NCBI GenBank assembly: GCA_036703665.1
Contig: DATNRD010000099.1
Location: 1-33,009 of the forward strand
Direction of reading: 5' to 3'
DNA from: Candidatus Obscuribacterales bacterium
GTDB taxonomy: Bacteria > Cyanobacteriota > Vampirovibrionia > Obscuribacterales > Obscuribacteraceae
Length of the DNA: 33,009 nucleotides
Shown: positions 4,290 to 29,549 of the stretch, one piece after another
How the letters are laid out: the number at the start of each line of letters is the position of its first letter
Position numbering within the stretch: the stretch's first letter is position 1
The notes under the pieces: model-generated
The model's database searches: none
Told to the model about the DNA's origin: nothing
The model's input: the letters and a program-made list of their open reading frames with translations, nothing else
Program-made: the position numbers and the translations under genes

Positions 4290-5642
4290 TCAGTCGATTG
4301 AGGAAGAGCGACCAGGCGATGCATCACAGTTCTCTGCCACCCCGTGATGCGGGTTTTCGCCGCGCTTAAGACGCCCGATGACGGCACTGGCGTTGCGGCC
4401 ACTGTCGGGGCAGCATTGTTCTAGCGGCTGTGAGTCTTTGAAGCGTGCGACGGCTCGCTTGAGTTCCCGCAATGGCCTGGTTAATTGCCAGGATTTGCTG
4501 CGCATAAGCATGTGATAGCGCTCGTCGAGCGACCAGTATGCGCTGTTCAACTGCCTGATGCGCTCCGTGGGATCACAGGGAACTGTTCCCATGCCCTCCA
4601 GGTTCATCCGTTGAGCATCGAGCTCGGCAACGCAGTAGTTGGCATAGAATGCAGTACCCAGAAAGGCCAGCGTGCTCCGATCGTTTCTGATAAGCTCGGC
4701 CGGCAGACCGGTCTTTGCCATAAGGTGCTCAAACTCGGGAATTGCTTGCTCGAGTAGCAGGTTCGTGTACTCGACCAGGCGGTCTATGGCCGCAATCCGA
4801 ACATAGTGTTGGAGCACGAGAACAGCAATCTGCAGGCGCTCCTCCGGAGTAAGCTCGAACGGCACGTCCGCTACGGAATATTGCCCATTGGCAATCATGT
4901 CAGGCGCCAACAAATGGTCACGAGAAACGGCCCTGTACTTTTCCATAAGAGGCAGGAAGAGAAGGTGAGAGCGCCCGAGCGAATCGCTCAGGAGAGAGCC
5001 GAACTCTTCGGCTACGATTTCGGGGATAAAGAGCGCCGGAAAGCGCTGCAAGATGCGAATCCACAAGTCCCAATCGCAACTACGCTTGAGGATTATGTGC
5101 GGGTCATACCAACCGACCTCCGATATGACCCATCGCGGCAGCATCACGGCAGGGTTGCCGATGCAGTTTCTTTCCAGCAGTCTTTCCACCGTCGCCGGGC
5201 TTCCCAACAAGTCAGTGCCGCTAGGAAAGTGCATCAGCGTCTGGCCGTAAACCATTCCCAGTCCGGGTTCGCTTAACAGCCCATCCAACAGGGTCGCAAT
5301 GTGGTTAGGGAGGAACATGGAATCATCGAAGATGAATGCCAGGTAATCGCCCCGCGAGCGCAGGAACGCGTGCGCCAGGGTGCAGGCCGGCAATCCGACA
5401 TTCCTGTCGAAGCGGACGTGCTGTATGCGCGGATCAGCTGCAGCAAGTCTCTGGACATATTCCGCCGTGCCGTCCGTCGAAGCGTCATCGGCTACCAACA
5501 ACTCCCAGTTCTGGTACGTTTGATTCAATACGCTGTCGATCGCACGCTGGAGATAGCCCGACCGAAATCGGGCGTGCGTCGGCAGCAGGATGGAGACTAA
5601 CGGCTCGTTCACGGTAATCGGATCTGGCTGCCCGCCGTTCAA
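4290..5642 (-). CDS. Family 2 glycosyltransferase with about 200-aa C-terminal extension
   Basis: LVSILLPTHARFRSGYLQRAIDSVLNQTYQNWELLVADDASTDGT...IFDDSMFLPNH. The listed start is TTG 5642; GTG 5612 is an alternative. The stop lies 6 nt before the aminotransferase ATG. Confidence 0.85.
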   Translation of the reverse strand: MNGGQPDPITVNEPLVSILLPTHARFRSGYLQRAIDSVLNQTYQNWELLVADDASTDGTAEYVQRLAAADPRIQHVRFDRNVGLPACTLAHAFLRSRGDYLAFIFDDSMFLPNHIATLLDGLLSEPGLGMVYGQTLMHFPSGTDLLGSPATVERLLERNCIGNPAVMLPRWVISEVGWYDPHIILKRSCDWDLWIRILQRFPALFIPEIVAEEFGSLLSDSLGRSHLLFLPLMEKYRAVSRDHLLAPDMIANGQYSVADVPFELTPEERLQIAVLVLQHYVRIAAIDRLVEYTNLLLEQAIPEFEHLMAKTGLPAELIRNDRSTLAFLGTAFYANYCVAELDAQRMNLEGMGTVPCDPTERIRQLNSAYWSLDERYHMLMRSKSWQLTRPLRELKRAVARFKDSQPLEQCCPDSGRNASAVIGRLKRGENPHHGVAENCDASPGRSSSID

Positions 5643-5700
5643 TACATGGCGGTCAACTTTGCAACCAGTCGTATATTAGACCGGGCAGCGGCAGGAGGAA

Positions 5701-6102
<402 letters not shown>

Positions 6103-6141
6103 CTAAAGAGGCTCGGGCGGAACAGGATTTCTGGGCACCAG

Positions 6142-6540
6142 CTACTCCTTGATGAACGACACTACAATCTCGCGCCGCCGCGGGCCGTCCAACTCGACGA
6201 GCACTACGCGCTGCCAGGTCCCCAGAACCAGCTCACCCTTGTCGACCGGTAGGAGCACTGCCGGCCCGATGAGCGTCGACATGATGTGATCCCCGACGTG
6301 AGCCGGGTTATGCGGATGCCTGTACTTGAGCTTCGGAATCATGTGCTCGAAAGCGTCAAGCATATCGAGGTCAGTGCCTGGATCGAGATCGGCTGTGGTG
6401 ATGGCAGCCGTTGTATGCAACGCGAAAACGTGACACAAACCAGCCTCCGCTTTGCGCTCGCGCAGCAGCGAATTGACCTGGTCAGTTATATCGACGATCT
6501 CTTTCTTGTGCTGGGTAACTACCGTTGCCTTGCGACTCAT
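6142..6540 (-). CDS. yjbQ: YjbQ/UPF0047-family protein (secondary thiamine-phosphate synthase family)
   Basis: Family signature LCHVFALHTTAAITTADLDPGTDLDM...HPHNPAHVGDH...LVLGTWQRVVLVELDGPRRR. AGGAGG lies 7 nt upstream of ATG 6540. Confidence 0.85.
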   Translation of the reverse strand: MSRKATVVTQHKKEIVDITDQVNSLLRERKAEAGLCHVFALHTTAAITTADLDPGTDLDMLDAFEHMIPKLKYRHPHNPAHVGDHIMSTLIGPAVLLPVDKGELVLGTWQRVVLVELDGPRRREIVVSFIKE

Positions 6541-6784
6541 GCCACGGCCTCCTGCGGCAAAACGTCCGGAACCAATTCTCGCACGTCATCGAGCGGAAGA
6601 ATCGGCGGACAGGCGGGGGTGGGCGGGCCACGCCCCTACGATTGCTTCGGTAAAGACGGCACTGGTTCACGACGCTCATGGCAGGGGCGGCTGGCAAGCC
6701 GCCCACGGTAAGGCAGATGAGTGGACCGTCGGGCGCGCTGCCGTGAGCAGCTGCCGAAAACGCACATTCCAGGAGACGAATACA

Positions 6785-6856
6785 CTGGGGCGCAAGGATT
6801 CGAACCTTGGAATGCCTGATCCAGAGTCAGGTGCCTTACCGCTTGGCTACGCCCCA
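6785..6856 (-). tRNA. tRNA-Gln (anticodon CTG)
   Basis: The reverse complement reads TGGGGCGTAGCCAAGCGGTAAGGCACCTGACTCTGGATCAGGCATTCCAAGGTTCGAATCCTTGCGCCCCAG. It has a 7-bp acceptor stem, anticodon stem CCTGA/TCAGG with loop CTCTGGA, a GGTTCGAATCC T-arm and discriminator G. It is close to E. coli tRNA-Gln as I recall it. CCA is not encoded. Confidence 0.93.
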
Positions 6857-6912
6857 ATAAGTCCGTTTATCGATTCTATGCAAATGCTGGCGCGGCTGTC
6901 AAATTTCTCCCA

Positions 6913-8655
6913 CTATCTTTTCTGGGCGCGCGCCCACGAATCCTTAAGAGAGACGATGCGGTTGAACACCAGCGAGCCGGGCTTGCTGTCCTTAACATCA
7001 GCCACGAAATACCCTTGTCGTTCAAACTGGAAACGCTCACCCGGCTTTGCCTCTCCCAGACTCCTCTCCAGTTTGCAACCGGTTAAGACCTTAAGGGAGT
7101 TGGGATTGATCGCCTTGAGAAAGTCGCTGTCCTTTCCCGTGGGCGGAGCCTCTTCAGAAAGCAGGCGATCGTACAGCCTCACCTCGGCATCGACTGCGTG
7201 GCGGGCACTCACCCAGTGAATCGTTCCCTTCACCTTACGCCCGGTCGTCCCGCTGCCCGACCTGGTTTCCGGGTCATAGGTGCAGCGCACCTCAGTTACC
7301 TCTCCCGCCGCATCTTTAATCACATCGGTGCATGTAATGCAGTAAGCGTGCCGCAACCGCACCTCCTTGCCCGGCGCCAGCCTGTAATAGTCCTTGGGCG
7401 GATCGAGCATGAAGTCATCGCGTTCGATGAAAATCTCCCGGCAGAACGGCACCTTACGTGTGCCTTCTTTAGGAACATCATGCGGCCAGTAGGAGGCGTC
7501 CAGCTCCTCCACCTGGTTTTCCGGATAGTTCTCAATGACTACTTTCAGCGGCTTCAACACTGCCAGCACTCGAGGCGCCTTCTGATTGAGATCGTCGCGG
7601 GCATGAAACTCGAGCTGCGCCATGTCCACGGTGCTGTTGGCTTTCGCCACCCCCACGCTGGCACAAAAGGCACGGATGCTCTCCGGCGTGTAGCCACGGC
7701 GGCGCAGTCCGGCAATCGTGGGCAGCCTTGGGTCATCCCAGCCGCTGACGTAGTTGCCTTCGACCAGCTCCAGCAGACGGCGCTTGCTCATAACGGTGTA
7801 ATTCAGGCTCAACCGCGCAAACTCGTACTGACGCGGCCGGCTGGGAAATTTCGCATAGTCTATGAGATTGTCGATCACCCAGTCGTACAACTCGCGGTTG
7901 TTCTCGAACTCAAGAGTGCAGATACTGTGCGTGATACCCTCGATTGCATCCGAAATCGGGTGAGCATAATCGTACATAGGGTAGATGCACCAGCTGTCGC
8001 CGGTCATGTAGTGAGACACGTGGCGGATGCGGTATAGAAGTGGATCACGCATCTTCATGTTGGCGCTGGCCATGTCAATCTTCGCGCGCAGTACGTGCTC
8101 GCCGTCCTTGAATTCTCCGCGGCGCATGCGGCGGAACAAATCGAGATTCTCTTCGACGCTGCGCTGGCGGTACGGGCTGTTCTTGCCGGGCGTCGTCACC
8201 GTGCCGCGATACTGTTTGATTTCCTCGTCGCTCAGGCTGCACACGTAAGCCTTTTCAGCGGTGATCAGGTGCTCGGCGTACTCGTACATCTTCTCGAAGT
8301 AGTCGCTGGCGTGATAGAGCCCGTCCCAGTTGAAGCCCAGCCAGTGCACGTCTTCCTTGATGGCTTCCTCGTACAGCGTGTCTTCTTTGGTGGGATCCGT
8401 GTCATCGAACCGCAAGTGGCAGCGTGTCCCGCTGCCTGGAAGCCTCTCGCGGTACTCCAGCGCCAGCCCGAAATTGAGGCAGATCGACTTGGCGTGCCCG
8501 ATGTGCAAAAACCCGTTCGGCTCTGGCGGGAAGCGCGTGATTACTTTCTGATGCCGCCCCGCTTCCAGGTCGCTGTCAATGATGTCCCTGATAAAATCGC
8601 CTGGCTTTGCCGGTGCCGACACGGAGGAATCCGCGGTTAACTGCTTGTCTGCCAT
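6913..8655 (-). CDS. glnS: Glutaminyl-tRNA synthetase
   Basis: [45 protein letters not shown] contains the HIGH motif. VMSKR is the KMSKS-type motif. Length and C-terminal anticodon-binding region are typical of GlnRS. I prefer ATG 8655 (MADKQL...); the listed ORF extends to 8706. Confidence 0.95.
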
Positions 8656-8961: not shown

Positions 8962-10107
8962 TCAGGGCTTACGCTGACCGGAAGGCGGCTTTGTCTGAGC
9001 TTGATCAGGCTTCCCTTGCGCTTGCTGCTCGAGCACGCGGGCAAAATCCCGGTTTTTCATCAAGCTGCGTACCTCCGGGCTGTCCGGTCCCAGTGACTTG
9101 GTCAACACCTGAGCCGCCCGGTCATACAGCGAAGCCGCCTCCCCGAACTTTCCCTGACGGGCGCACAAGGCAGCCAGATTGTTCAGGCAAATGCCGGTCT
9201 CATGATGATCGGGGCCCAGCGCCCTCTCGTAAATCCCGAGCGCCCTCCGGCGAATCGGCTCGGCATCGGCGAGCCTGTCTTGCTCGTAGTAGACGGAGGC
9301 AAGATTATCCAACGATGTAGCCAGGTGCTTTTCGGCACCAGGGAGCTTCTCTTCAATGGAAATGGCTCGCTTGAGCAACTCCTCGGCCTTGTCGTACTTC
9401 CGCTGCCGGTGGTAGACACCGGAGAGATTCGCCAGGTTCATGGCGAAGTCCACGCTATTTGGTCCCAACGTCTTTTCCAGAATGGCCAGCGACTGGTTGT
9501 GGAGCTTCTCGCCCTCCGCAAGATTTCCCTGCGCGTCATAAACCTGCGCAAGATTGTCCAGCAGTATGCCCACCATAGTACTTTCGGGTCCATCGCTCTT
9601 TTCATAGACGGGAAGCACCTTCTTGTACAGGTCTTCAGCCTCCTGCAAGCGCGAGGTCCTCAGGTATACACCGCCCAGCAACAACCGGCTGTCAGCCAGA
9701 CGCCGGTCGTTCTCCCCAAATGGCTCCGCCAGCTCAACCGCGCGCTTGAGAAGCCGCTCCGCTTCCGGGTACCTCCCCGCCAGCTTGGCAGCGGCACCAG
9801 CGTCAAAAGCCTCTTGCCAGCCAGACGTCTCAGCCAATTTTCCAGAAGCGGTGGTGCCGCTTGAGCCTGGGGGCGCAGGTATCCTGCCTGCTCCGGACGG
9901 CTCGGCAGTCTTTCCAGTAGCGGTGGCGCCCCGCTGGGCAGCCGACGTGGATGGCTTCTGCGGCCGCTGCCCGGTTCGCGGCAGTGCCGAGGACCGGTCG
10001 GCCGCAGAGGAGGGGGTTGGCAACTCGAAAAACAGCGTCGACGCCAGCAGCAAGGCAAAAATCAGGCTGGATGCAAATTGCAACATGTGTAAAACCTCTT
10101 GCTTCAT
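8962..10107 (-). CDS. Secreted tetratricopeptide-repeat protein (kinesin-light-chain-type TPR_12-like units)
   Basis: Signal-like N-terminus MLQFASSLIFALLLASTLFFELPTPSSA, then a P/S/G/A-rich linker. About five ~42-residue units follow, of the form LDNLAxVYxxQGxxxEAExLxxxALxIxEKxLGPxxxx. ATG 10086 is an alternative start with AAGAGG upstream. Confidence 0.85.
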   Translation of the reverse strand: MKQEVLHMLQFASSLIFALLLASTLFFELPTPSSAADRSSALPRTGQRPQKPSTSAAQRGATATGKTAEPSGAGRIPAPPGSSGTTASGKLAETSGWQEAFDAGAAAKLAGRYPEAERLLKRAVELAEPFGENDRRLADSRLLLGGVYLRTSRLQEAEDLYKKVLPVYEKSDGPESTMVGILLDNLAQVYDAQGNLAEGEKLHNQSLAILEKTLGPNSVDFAMNLANLSGVYHRQRKYDKAEELLKRAISIEEKLPGAEKHLATSLDNLASVYYEQDRLADAEPIRRRALGIYERALGPDHHETGICLNNLAALCARQGKFGEAASLYDRAAQVLTKSLGPDSPEVRSLMKNRDFARVLEQQAQGKPDQAQTKPPSGQRKP

Positions 10108-24080: not shown

Positions 24081-26522
24081 TTAGATGGCGTCGGAAACTG
24101 TCTCGCGCTGCAGATCGCTTTCAGCGCGTCTGGACAGCCCGGTGATCAGCGCGATTAACAGGAAAACTGCGACAACCGCAAAGACCTCGAGCATTCCGGT
24201 CGAGCGTAACCAGGCCTCATATGCCGGCCACGCATATGACAGGGTCCAGTTAATACCAAATGCGCCACCAGCGCCGGCTACCCACGCGAACGCACCGGGG
24301 AGCTTATATTGTCCTTTCCAGATCACGCACGCCCCAAGAACCAGGGCAGGAAGCCAGGCAGAAAGTATGGAAGCAAGCAGGTTGTAGTCAACGTATAGCG
24401 TCGTGCACATCGGTAAAATCAAGACACGAGCGTCGGTCGGTAACGGCAGTTCGAACCAGCTCCGGGAAAAGGCAGCAAACCCGGCGGCAAACGAAAGTAG
24501 AGCAAGCACGGTCGCCGGGGATGCTGAGAGCCGATCCGTGATGTGGCGTCTTGTGAGAACAGCTATCAGGACAAGTGTGCCAACGTAGATCACCGAGCGC
24601 ATCACCACCCACGTCTCAGGCAGAACCGGCGGTATGGTCGCTGTTACACCGGATTGCATGAACACTTGCACCTGCCGCACTACATACTCCCTTAGTCCCC
24701 CAAGGGACCAGCTGCAGAGCGCCAGTTTGTCGAGAACGTTCAAGGGAAAAGTGAGCAGCGCGCCCAGACAGAAAAGCTGAAATATTTTTCCGGCCCGCAG
24801 AGGAAGCCCGCCGAACCGACGCGATGCGACAACATAGACAAAGTACGGTAAGCCCACGTCGACCACGCCACGAAACATGATCAAGAACATCTCGTCCATC
24901 ACCCGGAAATCGCCGAGTATAGTCCGAGCGTTGACCTCCAGCAGGCAGAAAAGGACAACCGCTGCGTAGAGGCACAGGCGCCCTGCCGATGGCCACCCCG
25001 GCGAGGATTCCAGACTCAACTTGAGCCCGGCGGTGTGGAACAGCCACACCAGCCACATGGCGAAAACGGTAAGAAGCGCAACCGAATGCGCTTGAGATCT
25101 GCCGAACGAGAGGAATTGAAACAAGTATTCGGAAATCAGGAACCACGATAAGACAATCCAATACAACAGCGACGCTGCCGTATCGCCGGTCAGCCGTCGC
25201 TTCGACCCTAACCAGGCGCCGGCAACAATGGAGCACAGGAGGATCCAGCGCATCCACTGCGCTGAAAATGCGCTCACCGGATTGGACCAGAACCATTGAG
25301 AGTTCTTATAGACCCACGCAAAGAAGGTCAGCACAGCAGGCATACCCGCGGCAGAGGCGCTGGCGACAACAGTCTCACTCCAGGTGAGGCAGGCACCGGC
25401 CGTGATGACAAATAGCACGGCCGGCACGAATACTCGCTCTGGAAGAAGATCGCGCAGCGCGCTCGAGACAATTTTCGTGCTCTTGAGCAACTTGAAGATA
25501 ATGCCGACGCCGATAAAGTACCAGACCGGCCAGAGATACCCGTTCCACAACGTGAGCACCGAAAGCAGCTGCTCTGCATAGGCACCAGGGCCACCTCGCA
25601 GAAGCAGGCTAACCAGGAACGCGGCCGAGCCTGCCGTGATCGCATAGACGGCAAGTGCTGCCGGCAGCTGCATTGAGCTTGCTGCCTGCCACTGGTTCCG
25701 CTCCCACGCGCGGCCGCCCCAGATCATGCTCAGCAGGCAGAGCGCACCGCCGAGCAGCCCTCCCAGGAGCACCACGTGTGGTTTGACCATCGAGTGCAAC
25801 GGTGTCAGGGCAGCCAGATAGACGCCGGCTGGTGCCCCCACCGCCAACGCCGTGGCAACACTCGGTAGGCGACTCCGCGCACCGGAAGCGTGCAAGGCTC
25901 TTTCGGCCAGCGCCACTGACATTACTGCACAGGCAGGAACAAGCCCGTTCCAGAGCGAGCGGGGCAGGAAAAAGGCGCACGCTCCCAACAGGTACACGTA
26001 CACCAGCGAAGCAGCCACGAACATCGCCCGGTTGCACCGCATCGCCCCGGCTACCACGCATCCCCAGGCCAGTCCCGCAACCAGCGACCACAGCCAGATT
26101 GCCCACAGGGGTGCCTGCGTCACGGCACCACTTGCAGTCGTGATCGCCGGTCCCGCGGTATGGAACACCGCAGCAAACGGCATCGATACCGTCAAAAGAA
26201 CCGTAACGAGAAAAACCGGTCGGATCACGTGCAAGCTCTCGGCGGGAAGCACGCTCAAGTCGAGTCGATCCTTTCCATAATCGCGCCAGAAGAAACGCTC
26301 TACCAGGGAACCTATGGCAGCAGCCTTGCGATTCTCCCTCAGCCGGTCGACACAGCGCGCCACGATCGGCACGCTGGCCAACTGCCGGATTCGCGCTCCG
26401 ATCCAGTCGGCTACCGCCCCGATTACGGGAAACAGTCCAATCAGAAAGTTCCCGAACTTGCGAAGAGCTGCAATCACGTTGAGGAGATTCATCAAGGCGA
26501 GTTTTAGAACTGAAAGGCGCAT
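24081..26522 (-). CDS. Large polytopic membrane protein of unknown function (813 aa, at least 20 hydrophobic spans)
   Basis: Long uninterrupted ORF made almost wholly of 18-25-residue hydrophobic segments separated by short Arg/Lys or Trp-rich loops. I recognise no catalytic or transporter motif. ATG at 26522-26520. Confidence 0.8.
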   Translation of the reverse strand: MRLSVLKLALMNLLNVIAALRKFGNFLIGLFPVIGAVADWIGARIRQLASVPIVARCVDRLRENRKAAAIGSLVERFFWRDYGKDRLDLSVLPAESLHVIRPVFLVTVLLTVSMPFAAVFHTAGPAITTASGAVTQAPLWAIWLWSLVAGLAWGCVVAGAMRCNRAMFVAASLVYVYLLGACAFFLPRSLWNGLVPACAVMSVALAERALHASGARSRLPSVATALAVGAPAGVYLAALTPLHSMVKPHVVLLGGLLGGALCLLSMIWGGRAWERNQWQAASSMQLPAALAVYAITAGSAAFLVSLLLRGGPGAYAEQLLSVLTLWNGYLWPVWYFIGVGIIFKLLKSTKIVSSALRDLLPERVFVPAVLFVITAGACLTWSETVVASASAAGMPAVLTFFAWVYKNSQWFWSNPVSAFSAQWMRWILLCSIVAGAWLGSKRRLTGDTAASLLYWIVLSWFLISEYLFQFLSFGRSQAHSVALLTVFAMWLVWLFHTAGLKLSLESSPGWPSAGRLCLYAAVVLFCLLEVNARTILGDFRVMDEMFLIMFRGVVDVGLPYFVYVVASRRFGGLPLRAGKIFQLFCLGALLTFPLNVLDKLALCSWSLGGLREYVVRQVQVFMQSGVTATIPPVLPETWVVMRSVIYVGTLVLIAVLTRRHITDRLSASPATVLALLSFAAGFAAFSRSWFELPLPTDARVLILPMCTTLYVDYNLLASILSAWLPALVLGACVIWKGQYKLPGAFAWVAGAGGAFGINWTLSYAWPAYEAWLRSTGMLEVFAVVAVFLLIALITGLSRRAESDLQRETVSDAI

Positions 26523-26540
26523 TTGTCAACAAGTGACAAA
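26522..26540. promoter_or_regulatory. 19-bp perfect-arm palindrome TTTGTCA-acaag-TGACAAA in a divergent control region; candidate operator
   Basis: 7-bp inverted arms at 26522-26528 and 26534-26540. The site abuts the ATG of the 813-aa membrane protein and lies 25 nt (ATG 26565) or 91 nt (ATG 26631) upstream of the TPR-caspase gene. Confidence 0.3.
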
Positions 26541-26564
26541 AGGGCGCTGTAGAGGTGCCACGAG

Positions 26565-29111
26565 ATGTTAACATCGAGCAGGTACGAGCACGTCGAACAG
26601 CTTAAAGAGGGAATCCCGGGAAGCCGCTACATGTTTCAGACACCGTCTTTGCACCTGAGATTCCCGCCCAGCCGACAATCCCGCGCCAGCCTTGCCCTGG
26701 CGTTCCTGGTGACAGGACTGCTCATGCTGTGCGCGCCCCAGCAGGCTCTCTCTCAGAAAACGCTCTGGGAGACCTACATTGAGGGCGGCCGGAAGGCGTA
26801 CGTGCAGGGAAACTACACCGACGCCGAAAGGTTCTTCAAGGAGGCCCTCGAGGCCGCGACAGCTGCCGGAGACAGGGGAATCCGATTGGAACGCAGTCTT
26901 TTGAATTTGGGTACCGTGTATCGCGATCAGGCCAAGTATGCCGAGGCAGAGAAATTGCTTAAACAGGCAATATTGGTCATGGAAGCCGGCAAGCTGGCCG
27001 AACAAACGGACATGGCGCTTGCCTTGAATAATCTGGCAGGACTGTACCAGATGCAGGGGCGCACAGCCGAAGCGATCGAGCTCTACAACCGTTCGGTCGG
27101 GATCGCGCAAAAGCGGTTGGGAAGCAAAAATCCGGAGCTCGCCCTGGAGCTCAACAACCTGGCTTATGTCTACGTTGTGGCAGGCAAGTACGCGGATGCC
27201 GCCGCAGTGCTCAGGAGATCGATCAGCCTCTTCGACAACTCGAAGAAGCGCAATTCACTCTATTACGCAGTTACCCTCTTCAATCTTGCGTTTCTCGATC
27301 AAGAGACCGGCAACTTCGTAAATGCAGAAAAGCTCTATAAGCAGGCACTGGATGTCTGCGAGAAGTCGGCCGGGAAAGATCACAGATATACCGCAGGCGC
27401 TCTGACGGCCCTGGGTGAGCTGTACACGCGCCAGGGAAAGTATGTCGATGCCGAAGCCCTCTTGAAGCGTTCTCTGGAGATTATGGAAAGAGTGCACGGC
27501 CCCGGGCATCCTGAGATCGCCGGCGTCTTGCACGAGCTGGGCTCTGCGTATCTCATGCAGGGCAAGTACCAGATGGCCGAGCCCCTCTGCCGAAAGGCGC
27601 TTGACATAGCTGAGACAGCGCTGGGACCGGACCATCCCGCTGTCGCTTCCGGGCTTAACGATCTTGCCTTCGTCTACCAGCAACAGGGGAATTACTCCGA
27701 GGCTGAACCGCTTCTTGAAAGGGCGCTCAAAATCAGAGAGCAAAAATTCGGCTATGACCATGCCAAGACGGCTCAAAGCATGAAGCATCTAGCCGTGCTC
27801 TATCAAGACGAGGGCAAGCTGGAGCAATCCGAAGCATTGCTGACAAAAGCGCTTGCAATAGCGGAAAAACAGCTCGGTCCCCAACATGCCGACGTAGCTG
27901 AGATAGTGCGGCTCCTGGCCAGGATTTACGCCAGGCAAGGGAAATATGATCTAGCCGAACCGCTCTATAAGAGATCGCTTGTTGCCACTAAACACGCTCT
28001 CGGAGCGGACAACGTGCAGTATGCTGCTGGGCTGCGCGATCTCGGCTCTCTGTATCAAATGCAGGACAACCTCTCGGAAGCCGAACGGCTCTATCTCCAG
28101 GTGCTGGCCATTGACGAAAAATCGCTAGGTCCCGGCAGCGCCAGGGTAGCCAGCGACCTCGAAGCACTGGCAAAGGTATACACTGCGCTGGGCGACAAGG
28201 CAAAAGCCGGGGAAATGAGCGCCCGGGCAGAACAAATCAAGAGTGCGCTACCGGGCGCTCGTTACCTCAACAAGCTGGCTGAGTCTCTGGGCAGCGATGA
28301 TGCTCGAAGTGCTCGCGGGATCGACAGACCGGTCGCCGACAAATGGGCTCTGGTAATCGGTATAAGCAACTTCAAGGATTCCTCGATAAACCTCAAATAC
28401 GCGGCCAAGGATGCCACCGATTTCCGCAACTTTCTCGTTAACCGAGCCGGCTTCCAACCCGACCACGTCAAGCTGCTCACCGACTCCGGCGCCAATCGTG
28501 AAAATATTGTCGGGCAGCTCGGAGAAAAATGGCTTGGACGTCTGGCCAATCGCGACGACCTGGTCGTCATCTATATATCGAGCCACGCCAGCGGCGCCAA
28601 AGAAGAAGCCGGCGGGGTGAACTTTCTGGTCGCCTACGACACCAACAAGAACAGTCTTCTATCCACAGGCATTCCCATGCAGTGGCTGACGAACATCATC
28701 AAGGAGCAGGTGCACAGCGACCGCGTGGTGCTCATTATGGATGTTTGCCATGGGGGCGCAGCCGCGCCCGGCGAAAAAGGTCTGACCCGCACGGGCGGAC
28801 TCGATCTCGACCAGCTCAACATAGGCAGCGGACAAGCAATCCTGTGCTCGAGCCTTGCCGATCAGGTGTCCTGGGAATCCAAGAACTATCAAAACAGCGT
28901 CTTCACCAGACGGCTGCTGGAGGCGCTCGAATCGAGCGGCGACAAGACCACTCTAACTGAGGCTTACCTCAACTTGCGCGACGCCGTGGAGTCGGAAGTC
29001 CTGCGTGACCGGGGTGAACTGCAAACGCCCGTTCTGAACAAGAAGCAGTGGAAGGGCCGCGATGCCGTCATCTCGGTGCAACCGGCCAAGCCACGTCCCG
29101 GTCTGCCGTAA
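26565..29111 (+). CDS. Exported TPR-array protein fused to a C-terminal caspase-like peptidase C14 domain (orthocaspase/metacaspase-like)
   Basis: Signal/anchor-like segment RQSRASLALAFLVTGLLMLCAPQQALSQ. Ten in-phase 42-residue TPR units at 26886-28145. C14 domain from about 28338: KWALVIGISNF...AAKDATDF..., His in VVIYISSHAS (codon 28584-28586) and Cys in VVLIMDVCHGG (codon 28746-28748). ATG 26631 (GGGAAG 7 nt upstream) is an alternative start. Confidence 0.88.
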   Translation: MLTSSRYEHVEQLKEGIPGSRYMFQTPSLHLRFPPSRQSRASLALAFLVTGLLMLCAPQQALSQKTLWETYIEGGRKAYVQGNYTDAERFFKEALEAATAAGDRGIRLERSLLNLGTVYRDQAKYAEAEKLLKQAILVMEAGKLAEQTDMALALNNLAGLYQMQGRTAEAIELYNRSVGIAQKRLGSKNPELALELNNLAYVYVVAGKYADAAAVLRRSISLFDNSKKRNSLYYAVTLFNLAFLDQETGNFVNAEKLYKQALDVCEKSAGKDHRYTAGALTALGELYTRQGKYVDAEALLKRSLEIMERVHGPGHPEIAGVLHELGSAYLMQGKYQMAEPLCRKALDIAETALGPDHPAVASGLNDLAFVYQQQGNYSEAEPLLERALKIREQKFGYDHAKTAQSMKHLAVLYQDEGKLEQSEALLTKALAIAEKQLGPQHADVAEIVRLLARIYARQGKYDLAEPLYKRSLVATKHALGADNVQYAAGLRDLGSLYQMQDNLSEAERLYLQVLAIDEKSLGPGSARVASDLEALAKVYTALGDKAKAGEMSARAEQIKSALPGARYLNKLAESLGSDDARSARGIDRPVADKWALVIGISNFKDSSINLKYAAKDATDFRNFLVNRAGFQPDHVKLLTDSGANRENIVGQLGEKWLGRLANRDDLVVIYISSHASGAKEEAGGVNFLVAYDTNKNSLLSTGIPMQWLTNIIKEQVHSDRVVLIMDVCHGGAAAPGEKGLTRTGGLDLDQLNIGSGQAILCSSLADQVSWESKNYQNSVFTRRLLEALESSGDKTTLTEAYLNLRDAVESEVLRDRGELQTPVLNKKQWKGRDAVISVQPAKPRPGLP

Positions 29112-29151
29112 TGCATCGCAGGTAGGCAGCTACGCCTTCTGTTGATTCGCC

Positions 29152-29191
29152 GGGAGCGCCGGCTTCCGGCCGGCGCGATCCGGGCGCTCCC
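29152..29191. terminator. GC-rich hairpin between convergent genes; possible bidirectional terminator
   Basis: GGGAGCGCC (29152-29160) pairs with GGCGCTCCC (29183-29191). The 22-nt loop contains CCGGCCGG. It lies between the TPR-caspase stop (29111) and the RRM gene stop (29268). There is no clear U-tract. Confidence 0.2.
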
Positions 29192-29267
29192 AGGGCAACG
29201 AGCACCCTCATCTGCGTCATTATTACGGCAGCGTCTGTACGCCCGGTTAGGCGGATTGCAGCGCGAA

Positions 29268-29549
29268 TCAGTAACGACCGCGTGGGCGGCTGCCGCTGCG
29301 TGGCTTCGGCTCCGAAAGATTTACGGCTAGCGACCGGCCGTCGACATCACGGGAATTGAGCCCTTTGATGGCGGCCTCGGCTTCGGCTTGCGATGCCATC
29401 TCGACGAATCCGAAACCCCTCGGGCGGCCCGTGTCTCTATCCTTTATGGTCACAGCCGAGACCACCTGACCATACGAGCCGAACAGCTCTGCCAGGTCAG
29501 CATCCGTAATGCGGTAGGACAGGTTCCCTACAAACAGCTTGTTATTCAT
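29268..29549 (-). CDS. RRM-type RNA-binding protein (single RNA recognition motif with short Arg/Gly tail)
   Basis: RNP2 is KLFVGNL and RNP1 is RGFGFVEM. GGAGA lies upstream of ATG 29549 (MNNKLFVGNLSY...). The listed ORF extends upstream to 29618 without RRM similarity. Confidence 0.88.
   Translation of the reverse strand: MNNKLFVGNLSYRITDADLAELFGSYGQVVSAVTIKDRDTGRPRGFGFVEMASQAEAEAAIKGLNSRDVDGRSLAVNLSEPKPRSGSRPRGRY

Follow-up and report, generated by a model that had tools for sequence, protein, structure and literature searches.

A tetratricopeptide-repeat protease of the caspase-like C14 family with a conserved, predicted export signal in Candidatus Obscuribacterales

What might a caspase-type protease joined to a long protein-binding repeat array do outside the bacterial cytoplasm? 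The question is raised by a gene in a 33,009-nucleotide stretch of DNA from Candidatus Obscuribacterales bacterium (GenBank assembly GCA_036703665.1, contig DATNRD010000099.1, positions 1 to 33,009 of the forward strand; hereafter, the window), whose product combines an apparent signal peptide, an array of tetratricopeptide repeats (TPR) and a C-terminal domain of peptidase family C14. A preliminary description of this TPR-C14 protein, made from the sequence letters, had proposed that it serves regulated proteolysis in the cell envelope, with the TPR solenoid recognizing a ligand or substrate. In this work we examine that proposal through domain, structural, evolutionary and neighbourhood analyses. 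The reading we favour, with a probability of about 0.6, is that the gene encodes a Sec-exported, soluble envelope protease in which the TPR array would dock a partner and the C14 domain would cleave after Arg or Lys and activate itself. Our analysis also places the protein in a large, multi-paralogue, lineage-specific family and next to a conserved, divergently transcribed membrane-protein gene, both of which had escaped the preliminary description.

Architecture of the TPR-C14 protein

The gene and the parts of its product are listed below. Positions are those of the window, and residues of the C14 domain are numbered from the ATG at 26565 unless the second ATG (M23) is named.

26565-29111, + strand: TPR-C14 gene, longest open reading frame (ORF), 848 amino acids (aa), stop codon included; Pfam TPR_12 and Peptidase_C14
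26631-29111, + strand: most likely coding sequence, from the second ATG (M23), 826 aa; comparison with relatives
26631-26753, + strand: predicted Sec-type signal peptide, M23-S63; heuristic scan for n-, h- and c-regions and a -3/-1 site, with orthologue conservation
26754-26885, + strand: degenerate N-terminal capping TPR-like unit (QKTLWETYIEGGRKAYVQGNYTDAERFFKEALEAA...); 42-residue row from 26760, AlphaFold model
26886-28145, + strand: ten uninterrupted in-phase 42-residue (126-nt) kinesin-light-chain-type TPR units; autocorrelation, row print-out, hidden Markov models (HMMs), structural model and Foldseek
28146-28271, + strand: degenerate C-terminal capping TPR-like unit and solvating helix; row print-out, AlphaFold model
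28272-28340, + strand: flexible Arg-rich linker from the TPR array to the protease (...SLGSDDARSARGIDRPVAD); predicted local distance difference test (pLDDT) 65-71, poor orthologue conservation
28341-29039, + strand: Peptidase_C14 domain (metacaspase/orthocaspase-like) with p20-like and p10-like parts; Pfam residues 593-825, profile matches
28584-28586, + strand: predicted catalytic His in ISSHAS, H674 from M1 and H652 from M23; end of strand beta-3, aligned to Yca1 SGHGG
28746-28748, + strand: predicted catalytic Cys in DVCHGG, C728 from M1 and C706 from M23; end of strand beta-4, aligned to Yca1 DSCHSG
28752-28790, + strand: disordered loop after the catalytic Cys, with K738 and R742 (GEKGLTR); pLDDT below 50 at residues 708-715 (M23 numbering)

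The central part of the protein belongs to the TPR_12/TPR_10 (kinesin-light-chain) class, with Pfam E-values of 1.1e-120 for TPR_12, in nine stretches, and 2.3e-82 for TPR_10. A BLOSUM/identity autocorrelation over residues 61-590 peaks at lag 42 and its multiples only (27% identity, against 5-10% at other lags), and rows of 42 residues printed from nucleotide 26886 to 28145 give ten aligned units with zero insertions or deletions; the number of units, their limits and the degenerate caps at both ends were thus exactly as first described. The AlphaFold model of the full-length protein (pLDDT 89.3; predicted template modelling score, pTM, 0.81) has 25 helices followed by a beta-sheet domain, and its TPR region consists of paired helices throughout at pLDDT above 90. 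When this model was compared with the Protein Data Bank (PDB) using Foldseek, every one of the 50 matches listed was a TPR-repeat protein (KLC1/2, APPBP2, SPY, OGT and APC subunits among them), the TPR domains of KLC1 and KLC2 matching at 34-43% identity. Three orthologues (P0022, P0047 and P0080) are longer than the window protein by precisely one 42-residue TPR unit (alignment A1, columns 311-352); repeat number thus changes by whole units within the family.

The HMM match and the His-Cys dyad motifs place the C-terminal domain in family C14. With PF00656 it reaches 70.5 bits, the cut-off being 21.4 (E-value 2.3e-19), over positions 2-224 of 233 in the profile, so that both Pfam comparisons proposed in the preliminary description returned significant matches. 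A profile of the family matches the yeast metacaspase Yca1 (4F6O) at 3.4e-9 and caspase-1/-4 p10 chains at about 2e-3; its alignment to Yca1 sets S-H-G-S onto SGHGG and D-A-C-H-S-G onto DSCHSG. The C14 order of motifs with both catalytic residues retained, as originally proposed, is borne out across an alignment of 128 relatives, in which H674, C728, D726 and E771 are invariant (128/128). D616 is present in 126 of 126 (K-D-A, where Yca1 has I-N-D-A), and D726, in the motif D-x-C, aligns with D-S-C of Yca1. In the AlphaFold model (M23 numbering) the His ends strand E644-653 and the Cys ends strand E698-706, as the caspase-hemoglobinase fold would predict.

Both acidic residues of the S1 pocket, the equivalents of TbMC2 Asp95 and Asp211, appear to be conserved in the family. 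We take them to be D616 and D726, an assignment that draws in part on PMC5756287. The non-caspase C14 enzymes characterised so far prefer a basic P1 residue because of this acidic pocket (PMC5756287), and the conservation of both residues leads us to expect cleavage after Arg or Lys. The loop that follows the catalytic Cys is itself strongly conserved, with K738 in 127 of 128 relatives and R742 in 125. The one characterised orthocaspase, MaOC1, autoprocesses (PMC5756287), and the K738/R742 loop is a plausible candidate for an autoprocessing site between the p20-like and p10-like halves.

The N-terminus, positively charged, then hydrophobic and ending in ALS-Q, was recovered by the scan as it had been reported. 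Counted from M23, its basic n-region holds three Arg and zero acidic residues (+3/-0), its h-core is FLVTGLLMLC (mean Kyte-Doolittle hydropathy 2.55) within an uncharged run of 24 residues, and its c-region is PQQALS; the predicted signal peptidase I cut falls between 26753 and 26754 (ALS/QK, the slash marking the cut). The N-terminus is basic and then hydrophobic, with a small-residue cleavage site, in each of the seven full-length orthologues from the database (38-91% identity). The +1 Gln (26754-26756 in the window) is the first residue of the folded N-terminal cap and is invariant in an alignment of eight orthologues; it calls to mind the +1 Gln (pyroglutamate) rule described for substrates of Bacteroidetes signal peptidase I. 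Among genomic relatives, 48 align directly onto an A/S/G-Q type of junction. An N-terminal hydrophobic segment is found in 78 of 80 full-length genomic relatives, a loose statistic that 50% of control ORFs also pass, and the aligned junction is therefore the stronger argument for export. One of the two exceptions is cut by the end of its contig and the other scores 1.99 against a threshold of 2.0 and reads LSQPAFA/DA. The preliminary description had named a general lack of the hydrophobic segment in orthologues as one outcome that would tell against it; in the first sample all members have the segment and in the second nearly all. Conservation of the N-terminal signal thus supports export of the TPR-C14 protein, and the C14 subfamily as a whole is mostly signal-bearing.

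Other routes of export were considered and rejected. The window signal contains no lipobox ([LVI][ASTVI][GAS]C), its sole Cys being preceded by L-M-L (Leu at -1) and not conserved in orthologues. Its n-region has no twin-Arg motif (S/T-R-R-x-F-L-K) and single Arg residues only; the 91% identical relative P0001 has V-R-R-A-L-A-F, and RR is absent from the other orthologues. Neither lipoprotein nor Tat export was retained, since the window protein and its orthologues show no lipobox and, as a rule, no twin-arginine motif.

The hydrophobic segment is N-terminal with either start codon. Comparison with relatives suggests, without deciding the matter, that ATG 26631 is the likelier start than ATG 26565. 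The gene call of P0001 begins at the equivalent of ATG 26631. In the DNA of the related locus L001, GTG stands in place of the upstream ATG, a GAGGTG Shine-Dalgarno-like motif is lost and the 24 nt preceding ATG 26631 are identical, a comparison limited by the 91% identity of the entire spacer. Taking the conserved start, M11, of the divergent neighbour described below gives a spacer of 138 base pairs (bp), similar to the 100-130 bp found in orthologous loci. A scan of 26300-29400 returned no sigma-70-like promoter sites; the terminator-like sites that it gave were no commoner than expected by chance, and they fell within the gene on the minus strand.

The gene is under purifying selection. 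Measured against the 91% relative, the ratio of nonsynonymous to synonymous substitution rates (dN/dS) is 0.14 for the whole gene, 0.08 for the C14 domain, 0.13 for the TPR array and 0.47 for the signal peptide, and these regional values form the pattern of a real exported protein.

Family spread and genomic neighbourhoods

Melainabacteria are the non-photosynthetic sister group of the cyanobacteria. A scan of one genome per species recovered more than 519 relatives of the TPR-C14 protein, the best 80 of which come almost all from Candidatus Obscuribacterales/Melainabacteria, several genomes holding 2-3 copies among these 80. At species level the closest match reaches only 54% identity, indicating that the window organism is without a close representative in the species-level set. 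When the C14 domain alone is used as the query, the subfamily is seen to include many proteins of 420-460 aa without TPR, which consist of a signal peptide, a short linker, the C14 domain and a C-terminal extension of about 150 aa. By these searches, the TPR-C14 protein is one paralogue of a large, uncharacterised family specific to Obscuribacterales/Melainabacteria. Among the literature matches listed for Melainabacteria and caspase, all concern unrelated topics and none this family.

The survey of orthologue neighbourhoods suggested in the preliminary description was run by clustering all ORFs in 85 loci, and it identified one neighbour that is kept, a membrane protein encoded divergently from the TPR-C14 gene:

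24081-26492, - strand: divergently transcribed orphan polytopic membrane protein, about 18 predicted transmembrane (TM) helices; likely start M11, the ORF (813 aa) extending to 26522
26493-26630, no strand: divergent intergenic spacer common to the TPR-C14 and membrane-protein genes; sequence and comparison with L001

The pair is kept in the window, in L001 and in L005-L009, loci whose TPR-C14 proteins share 50-91% identity and whose other flanking genes all differ; the membrane protein is 41-45% identical between lineages, and the divergent arrangement persists over identities of 41-54%. It has no match in Pfam (E up to 10), NCBIfam or PADLOC, and its AlphaFold model (pLDDT 83.8, pTM 0.81) finds no fold relative in the PDB with Foldseek (best E 0.43, TM-score below 0.2). 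A profile search of 1.84 billion representative proteins returned 144 relatives, those named or placed being of the Melainabacteria/Cyanobacteriota group, and no bridge from these 144 to any known family. Membership of a known family was rejected, there being no family, fold or bridging match, and on the strength of the model the protein may represent a new membrane-protein fold. Most of its relatives (P0242-P0271 and the L005-L009 set) add a C-terminal domain of about 200 aa; the window copy is without it. The neighbour is a possible partner of the TPR-C14 protein, with weak to moderate support, and we see in it the leading candidate for the role of anchor, substrate or signalling partner.

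Other paralogues stand next to other genes. At about 31 loci a gene for an S33-type alpha/beta hydrolase (Hydrolase_4) lies 0-115 bp downstream of a TPR-C14 paralogue, on the same strand; these paralogues form a clade of about 890-900 aa that includes L038, L046, L055, L065, L067 and some 26 more loci. The linked hydrolase begins with a signal peptide followed by a strongly basic stretch (e.g. FWPFSKKHKDKHGKERNRKKR), a stretch that would suit a protease specific for Arg/Lys, and the two proteins may constitute a protease-zymogen pair. At 22 loci, among them L032, L035, L040, L045, L052, L059, L060 and L074, Ser/Thr kinase genes (Pkinase, some with C-terminal TPRs) adjoin or lie near other TPR-C14 paralogues. 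Some follow the paralogue on the same strand after 9-33 bp; others precede it by about 80-125 bp, and of these the kinase gene of L045 is co-directional and those of L032, L035 and L040 are divergent. In L002 an S41 C-terminal processing protease (6981-7964) is encoded directly upstream of the TPR-C14 gene, with NlpC/P60 and C39 genes nearby, and in L003 a pair of M16 peptidases (5048-7936) is found directly upstream of the TPR-C14 orthologue.

The window encodes a second exported TPR_12 protein at 8962-10107 on the minus strand (381 aa), which has a signal peptide (...LPTPSSA/AD), about 60 aa of low-complexity Pro/Ser/Gly linker, and next the motif of the N-terminal cap (GWQEAFDAGAAAKLAGRYPEAERLLKRAVELAE). 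It is 33% identical to the TPR array of the TPR-C14 protein and is without a catalytic domain. The same cap motif follows the signal peptide in P0053, P0017, P0097 and P0118.

Known systems and competing explanations

The opinion, voiced in the preliminary description, that no system had been described for such an envelope role was overstated. A 2012 catalogue of 671 prokaryotic metacaspase-like proteins reported TPR_1 in 7% and Sel1 in 6%, and an N-terminal TM helix, in the authors' view a probable signal peptide, in about 100 of them (Asplund-Samuelsson et al., PMC3501461). Secreted C14 proteins have been noted with YARHG domains and with ExoR-like Sel1 repeats (PMC3355149, PMC4550343), and DdvA and LbcA-CtpA, considered below, also bear on the point. 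That the characterised caspase-fold systems act in the cytoplasm is true in general, with the partly characterised DdvA as an exception. In the literature searched, we came across no C14-TPR protein that is exported and whose substrate or trigger is known.

Orthocaspases (MEROPS C14B; MaOC1 of Microcystis aeruginosa) resemble the window protein in their C14 His-Cys dyad and acidic S1 pocket, in the frequency of fusions to protein-interaction repeats and in a loop after the catalytic Cys at which autoprocessing is expected. MaOC1 differs in being cytoplasmic and single-domain (PMC5756287), and the window subfamily in turn differs from orthocaspases in its missing pocket Cys, in a TPR array N-terminal to the protease and in having several paralogues per genome.

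DdvA of Myxococcus xanthus is a transmembrane anti-sigma factor with a periplasmic TPR-CHAT module, its structure solved by cryo-electron microscopy (Sci Adv 2024, PMC11506125), in which the TPRs have been proposed to sense a protein signal that induces autoproteolysis (PMC11506125). It has in common with our protein the order of modules, TPR array first and then a His-Cys protease domain of caspase fold, and a periplasmic location, which in the window protein is predicted. DdvA differs in that the protease is of the CHAT and not the C14 type, and in being TM-anchored, dimeric and equipped with a cytoplasmic zinc anti-sigma domain bound to the extracytoplasmic function (ECF) sigma factor DdvS. 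The window protein has no cytoplasmic domain, only 18-40 residues preceding its hydrophobic segment, and cleavage apparently frees it from the membrane; the window ORFs scanned include no sigma-factor gene nearby. CHAT (PF12770) has no match in the window protein, whose protease is PF00656. A TPR-CHAT or DdvA-type identity was rejected, since PF12770, the cytoplasmic anti-sigma domain and, among the ORFs scanned, a sigma gene are missing.

TPR-CHAT proteins at large, including Csx29 of type III-E CRISPR (Craspase), likewise join a TPR_12 array to a caspase-fold protease, and the window protein finds its best database matches in their arrays, with 35-46% identity across the TPR portion. They differ in carrying PF12770 instead of PF00656; Csx29 is cytoplasmic and RNA-guided, and the exported TPR-CHAT proteins are uncharacterised. 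The 119 best TPR matches (P0002-P0120) are nearly all TPR-CHAT proteins of 1100-1450 aa, with named sources in Nitrospirota, Deltaproteobacteria, Acidobacteria, Cyanobacteria and Hyphomicrobiaceae. A signal-peptide-like segment, typically ending AxA/Q, begins 95 of them (~80%), and a +1 Gln is very common in the exported members; in P0118 an exported TPR module is joined to FG-GAP/VCBS repeats. From these signal-like starts, the combination of exported TPR and caspase-fold protease looks widespread.

In E. coli, the TPR lipoprotein NlpI is an adaptor of the periplasmic S41 protease Prc. LbcA and CtpA of Pseudomonas aeruginosa form a comparable pair of TPR lipoprotein adaptor and periplasmic S41 protease (PMC6050968, PMC8764530). 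The likeness lies in functional logic only, an envelope TPR solenoid selecting substrates (cell-wall hydrolases) and activating a protease; these systems differ in consisting of separate polypeptides, a serine S41 enzyme and a lipoprotein adaptor, whereas the window protein fuses its TPR array to a cysteine C14 protease and has no lipobox. Gingipains (C25) and clostripain (C11) are secreted clan-CD enzymes of the caspase-hemoglobinase fold with Arg/Lys specificity; they differ in belonging to other families, in having no TPR array and in their dedicated secretion and pro-domain systems.

Under the reading we favour, the protein would be exported by Sec in a diderm Melainabacteria-type organism, and signal peptidase I would remove about 41 residues at ALS/Q. 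The product would be a soluble periplasmic protein made up of a 12-unit kinesin-light-chain-type TPR superhelix, a flexible Arg-rich linker and the C14 domain. The TPR groove would dock a protein or peptide partner, either delivering a substrate or with the enzyme held off until a ligand binds. The C14 domain would most likely cut after Arg or Lys, and it would probably be activated by cutting itself in the loop that follows the catalytic Cys, at the near-invariant K-G-L-x-R motif.

A number of observations weigh against this reading. The signal-peptide call comes from hand-written n/h/c and -3/-1 rules plus conservation, a heuristic rather than a trained predictor, and the hydrophobicity statistic is loose, as noted above. 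The residue after the catalytic His is Ala675 (28587-28589) in the window protein and P0001 only, and Gly in 126 of 128 relatives; it may be a lineage-specific change at an oxyanion-hole position. The S1-pocket Cys (Cys92 of TbMC2) is absent across the family (Ala in 94, Pro in 22 and Ser in 7 of 126), the window protein reading Y-A-A-K-D where Yca1 reads R-G-C-I-N-D. Mutating this Cys strongly reduces metacaspase activity and its absence tracks with inactive orthocaspases (PMC5756287), from which it follows that activity may be low or specificity altered; the residue does not define family C14, though it marks active metacaspases. As to the putative partner, the distant membrane-protein members P0262, P0265, P0267 and P0271 have no TPR-C14 gene nearby, and there are TPR-C14 paralogues with other neighbours in place of the membrane protein. 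The pairing is clade-limited and may reflect inherited synteny, not function. The idea of an obligatory partner in general was rejected, given the four unpaired distant members and an unrelated, unannotated 785-aa neighbour in L003.

Four other explanations deserve consideration. The protein might be released, crossing the outer membrane or being shed, and act on foreign or environmental proteins in feeding, surface remodelling or antagonism. The several paralogues per genome would suit such a role, as would the paralogue loci with a signal-bearing S33-type hydrolase (~31) and nearby S41, M16, NlpC/P60 and C39 peptidases, and gingipains and clostripain are familiar examples of secreted clan-CD proteases. 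The Pfam scan, however, shows neither a C-terminal sorting domain nor a recognisable signal for secretion across the outer membrane. A peptide-binding solenoid of 12 TPR units fits a specific partner better than bulk digestion, and what accompanies the gene in the closest orthologues is a membrane-protein gene and not a secretion system; we regard release as possible, if unlikely. If the signal instead remained uncleaved, the TPR-C14 module would sit on the inner membrane facing the periplasm, as a sensor resembling DdvA without its anti-sigma domain. The long uncharged run (24 residues), an n-region of 40 residues if translation starts at ATG 26565 and the precedent of DdvA for a membrane-tethered periplasmic TPR and caspase-fold module all speak for anchoring. 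Yet a small-residue -3/-1 site and an invariant Gln occupy the same column in all orthologues, at the start of the N-terminal cap, which is the pattern predicted by a cleaved signal; orthologue h-regions are as short as 10-15 residues, and there is neither a cytoplasmic domain nor, among the window ORFs scanned, an ECF sigma gene. An anchored sensor is for these reasons improbable.

A still smaller chance attaches to the idea that the C14 domain is catalytically weak or inactive and serves mainly as a binding module, making the protein a periplasmic adaptor like NlpI or LbcA. The His-Ala pair of the window protein and P0001 and the family-wide loss of the S1-pocket Cys would agree with it, pseudo-orthocaspases are common (PMC6426788), and an S41 protease gene lies directly upstream of the L002 orthologue. 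Against this stand the invariance of the His, the Cys and both pocket Asp over 126-128 sequences and a C14 dN/dS of 0.08, the lowest in the gene; moreover, the pseudo-variants described so far replace the dyad itself. The last explanation, for which we see only the slightest chance, holds that the protein is a cytoplasmic conflict or defence effector of the NLR/STAND-associated TPR-caspase type and that its hydrophobic stretch is incidental. TPR_12/TPR_10 arrays and caspase domains are indeed typical of such systems, PADLOC gives weak domain-level matches (TPR 2e-17, caspase 6.8e-9), and the NCBIfam model 'caspase, EACC1-associated type' scores 85.7 bits, under its cut-off of 140. The signal peptide is nonetheless conserved family-wide, NTPase, death-like and EACC1 domains are absent from its Pfam and NCBIfam matches, and no defence genes lie nearby in the window. 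An anti-phage defence-system identity was rejected, the PADLOC and NCBIfam matches being generic or sub-threshold and an NTPase or defence neighbour lacking.

Significance for the family

The Sec-exported, soluble protease that we favour belongs to a kind of protein already catalogued and still uncharacterised; it is neither a singleton nor a new kind, and its value is that of a well-defined entry point rather than a surprise. A bolder and, in our judgement, improbable proposal is that signal peptide, TPR_12 and caspase-fold protease together define a widespread, unrecognised class of periplasmic sensor-proteases, built on C14 in Melainabacteria and on CHAT in many other phyla, and that the gene pair of the window forms a two-part envelope system. 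If this were so, a ligand captured by the TPRs would trigger Arg/Lys-specific cleavage of the 18-TM partner or of the protease itself, and a signal or repair response would be passed across the inner membrane, in a soluble counterpart of the mechanism proposed for DdvA.

As of a 2017 review, only one orthocaspase had been biochemically characterised (PMC5756287). The family described here supplies natural variants, with differing numbers of TPRs, a TPR-less short form and paralogues with different conserved neighbours. If it is exported, the TPR-C14 protease, with its intact dyad and large peptide-binding solenoid, would place caspase-type chemistry in the bacterial envelope, and the signal peptides on most of the best-matching TPR-CHAT proteins suggest that the envelope may be a common workplace for caspase-fold proteases.

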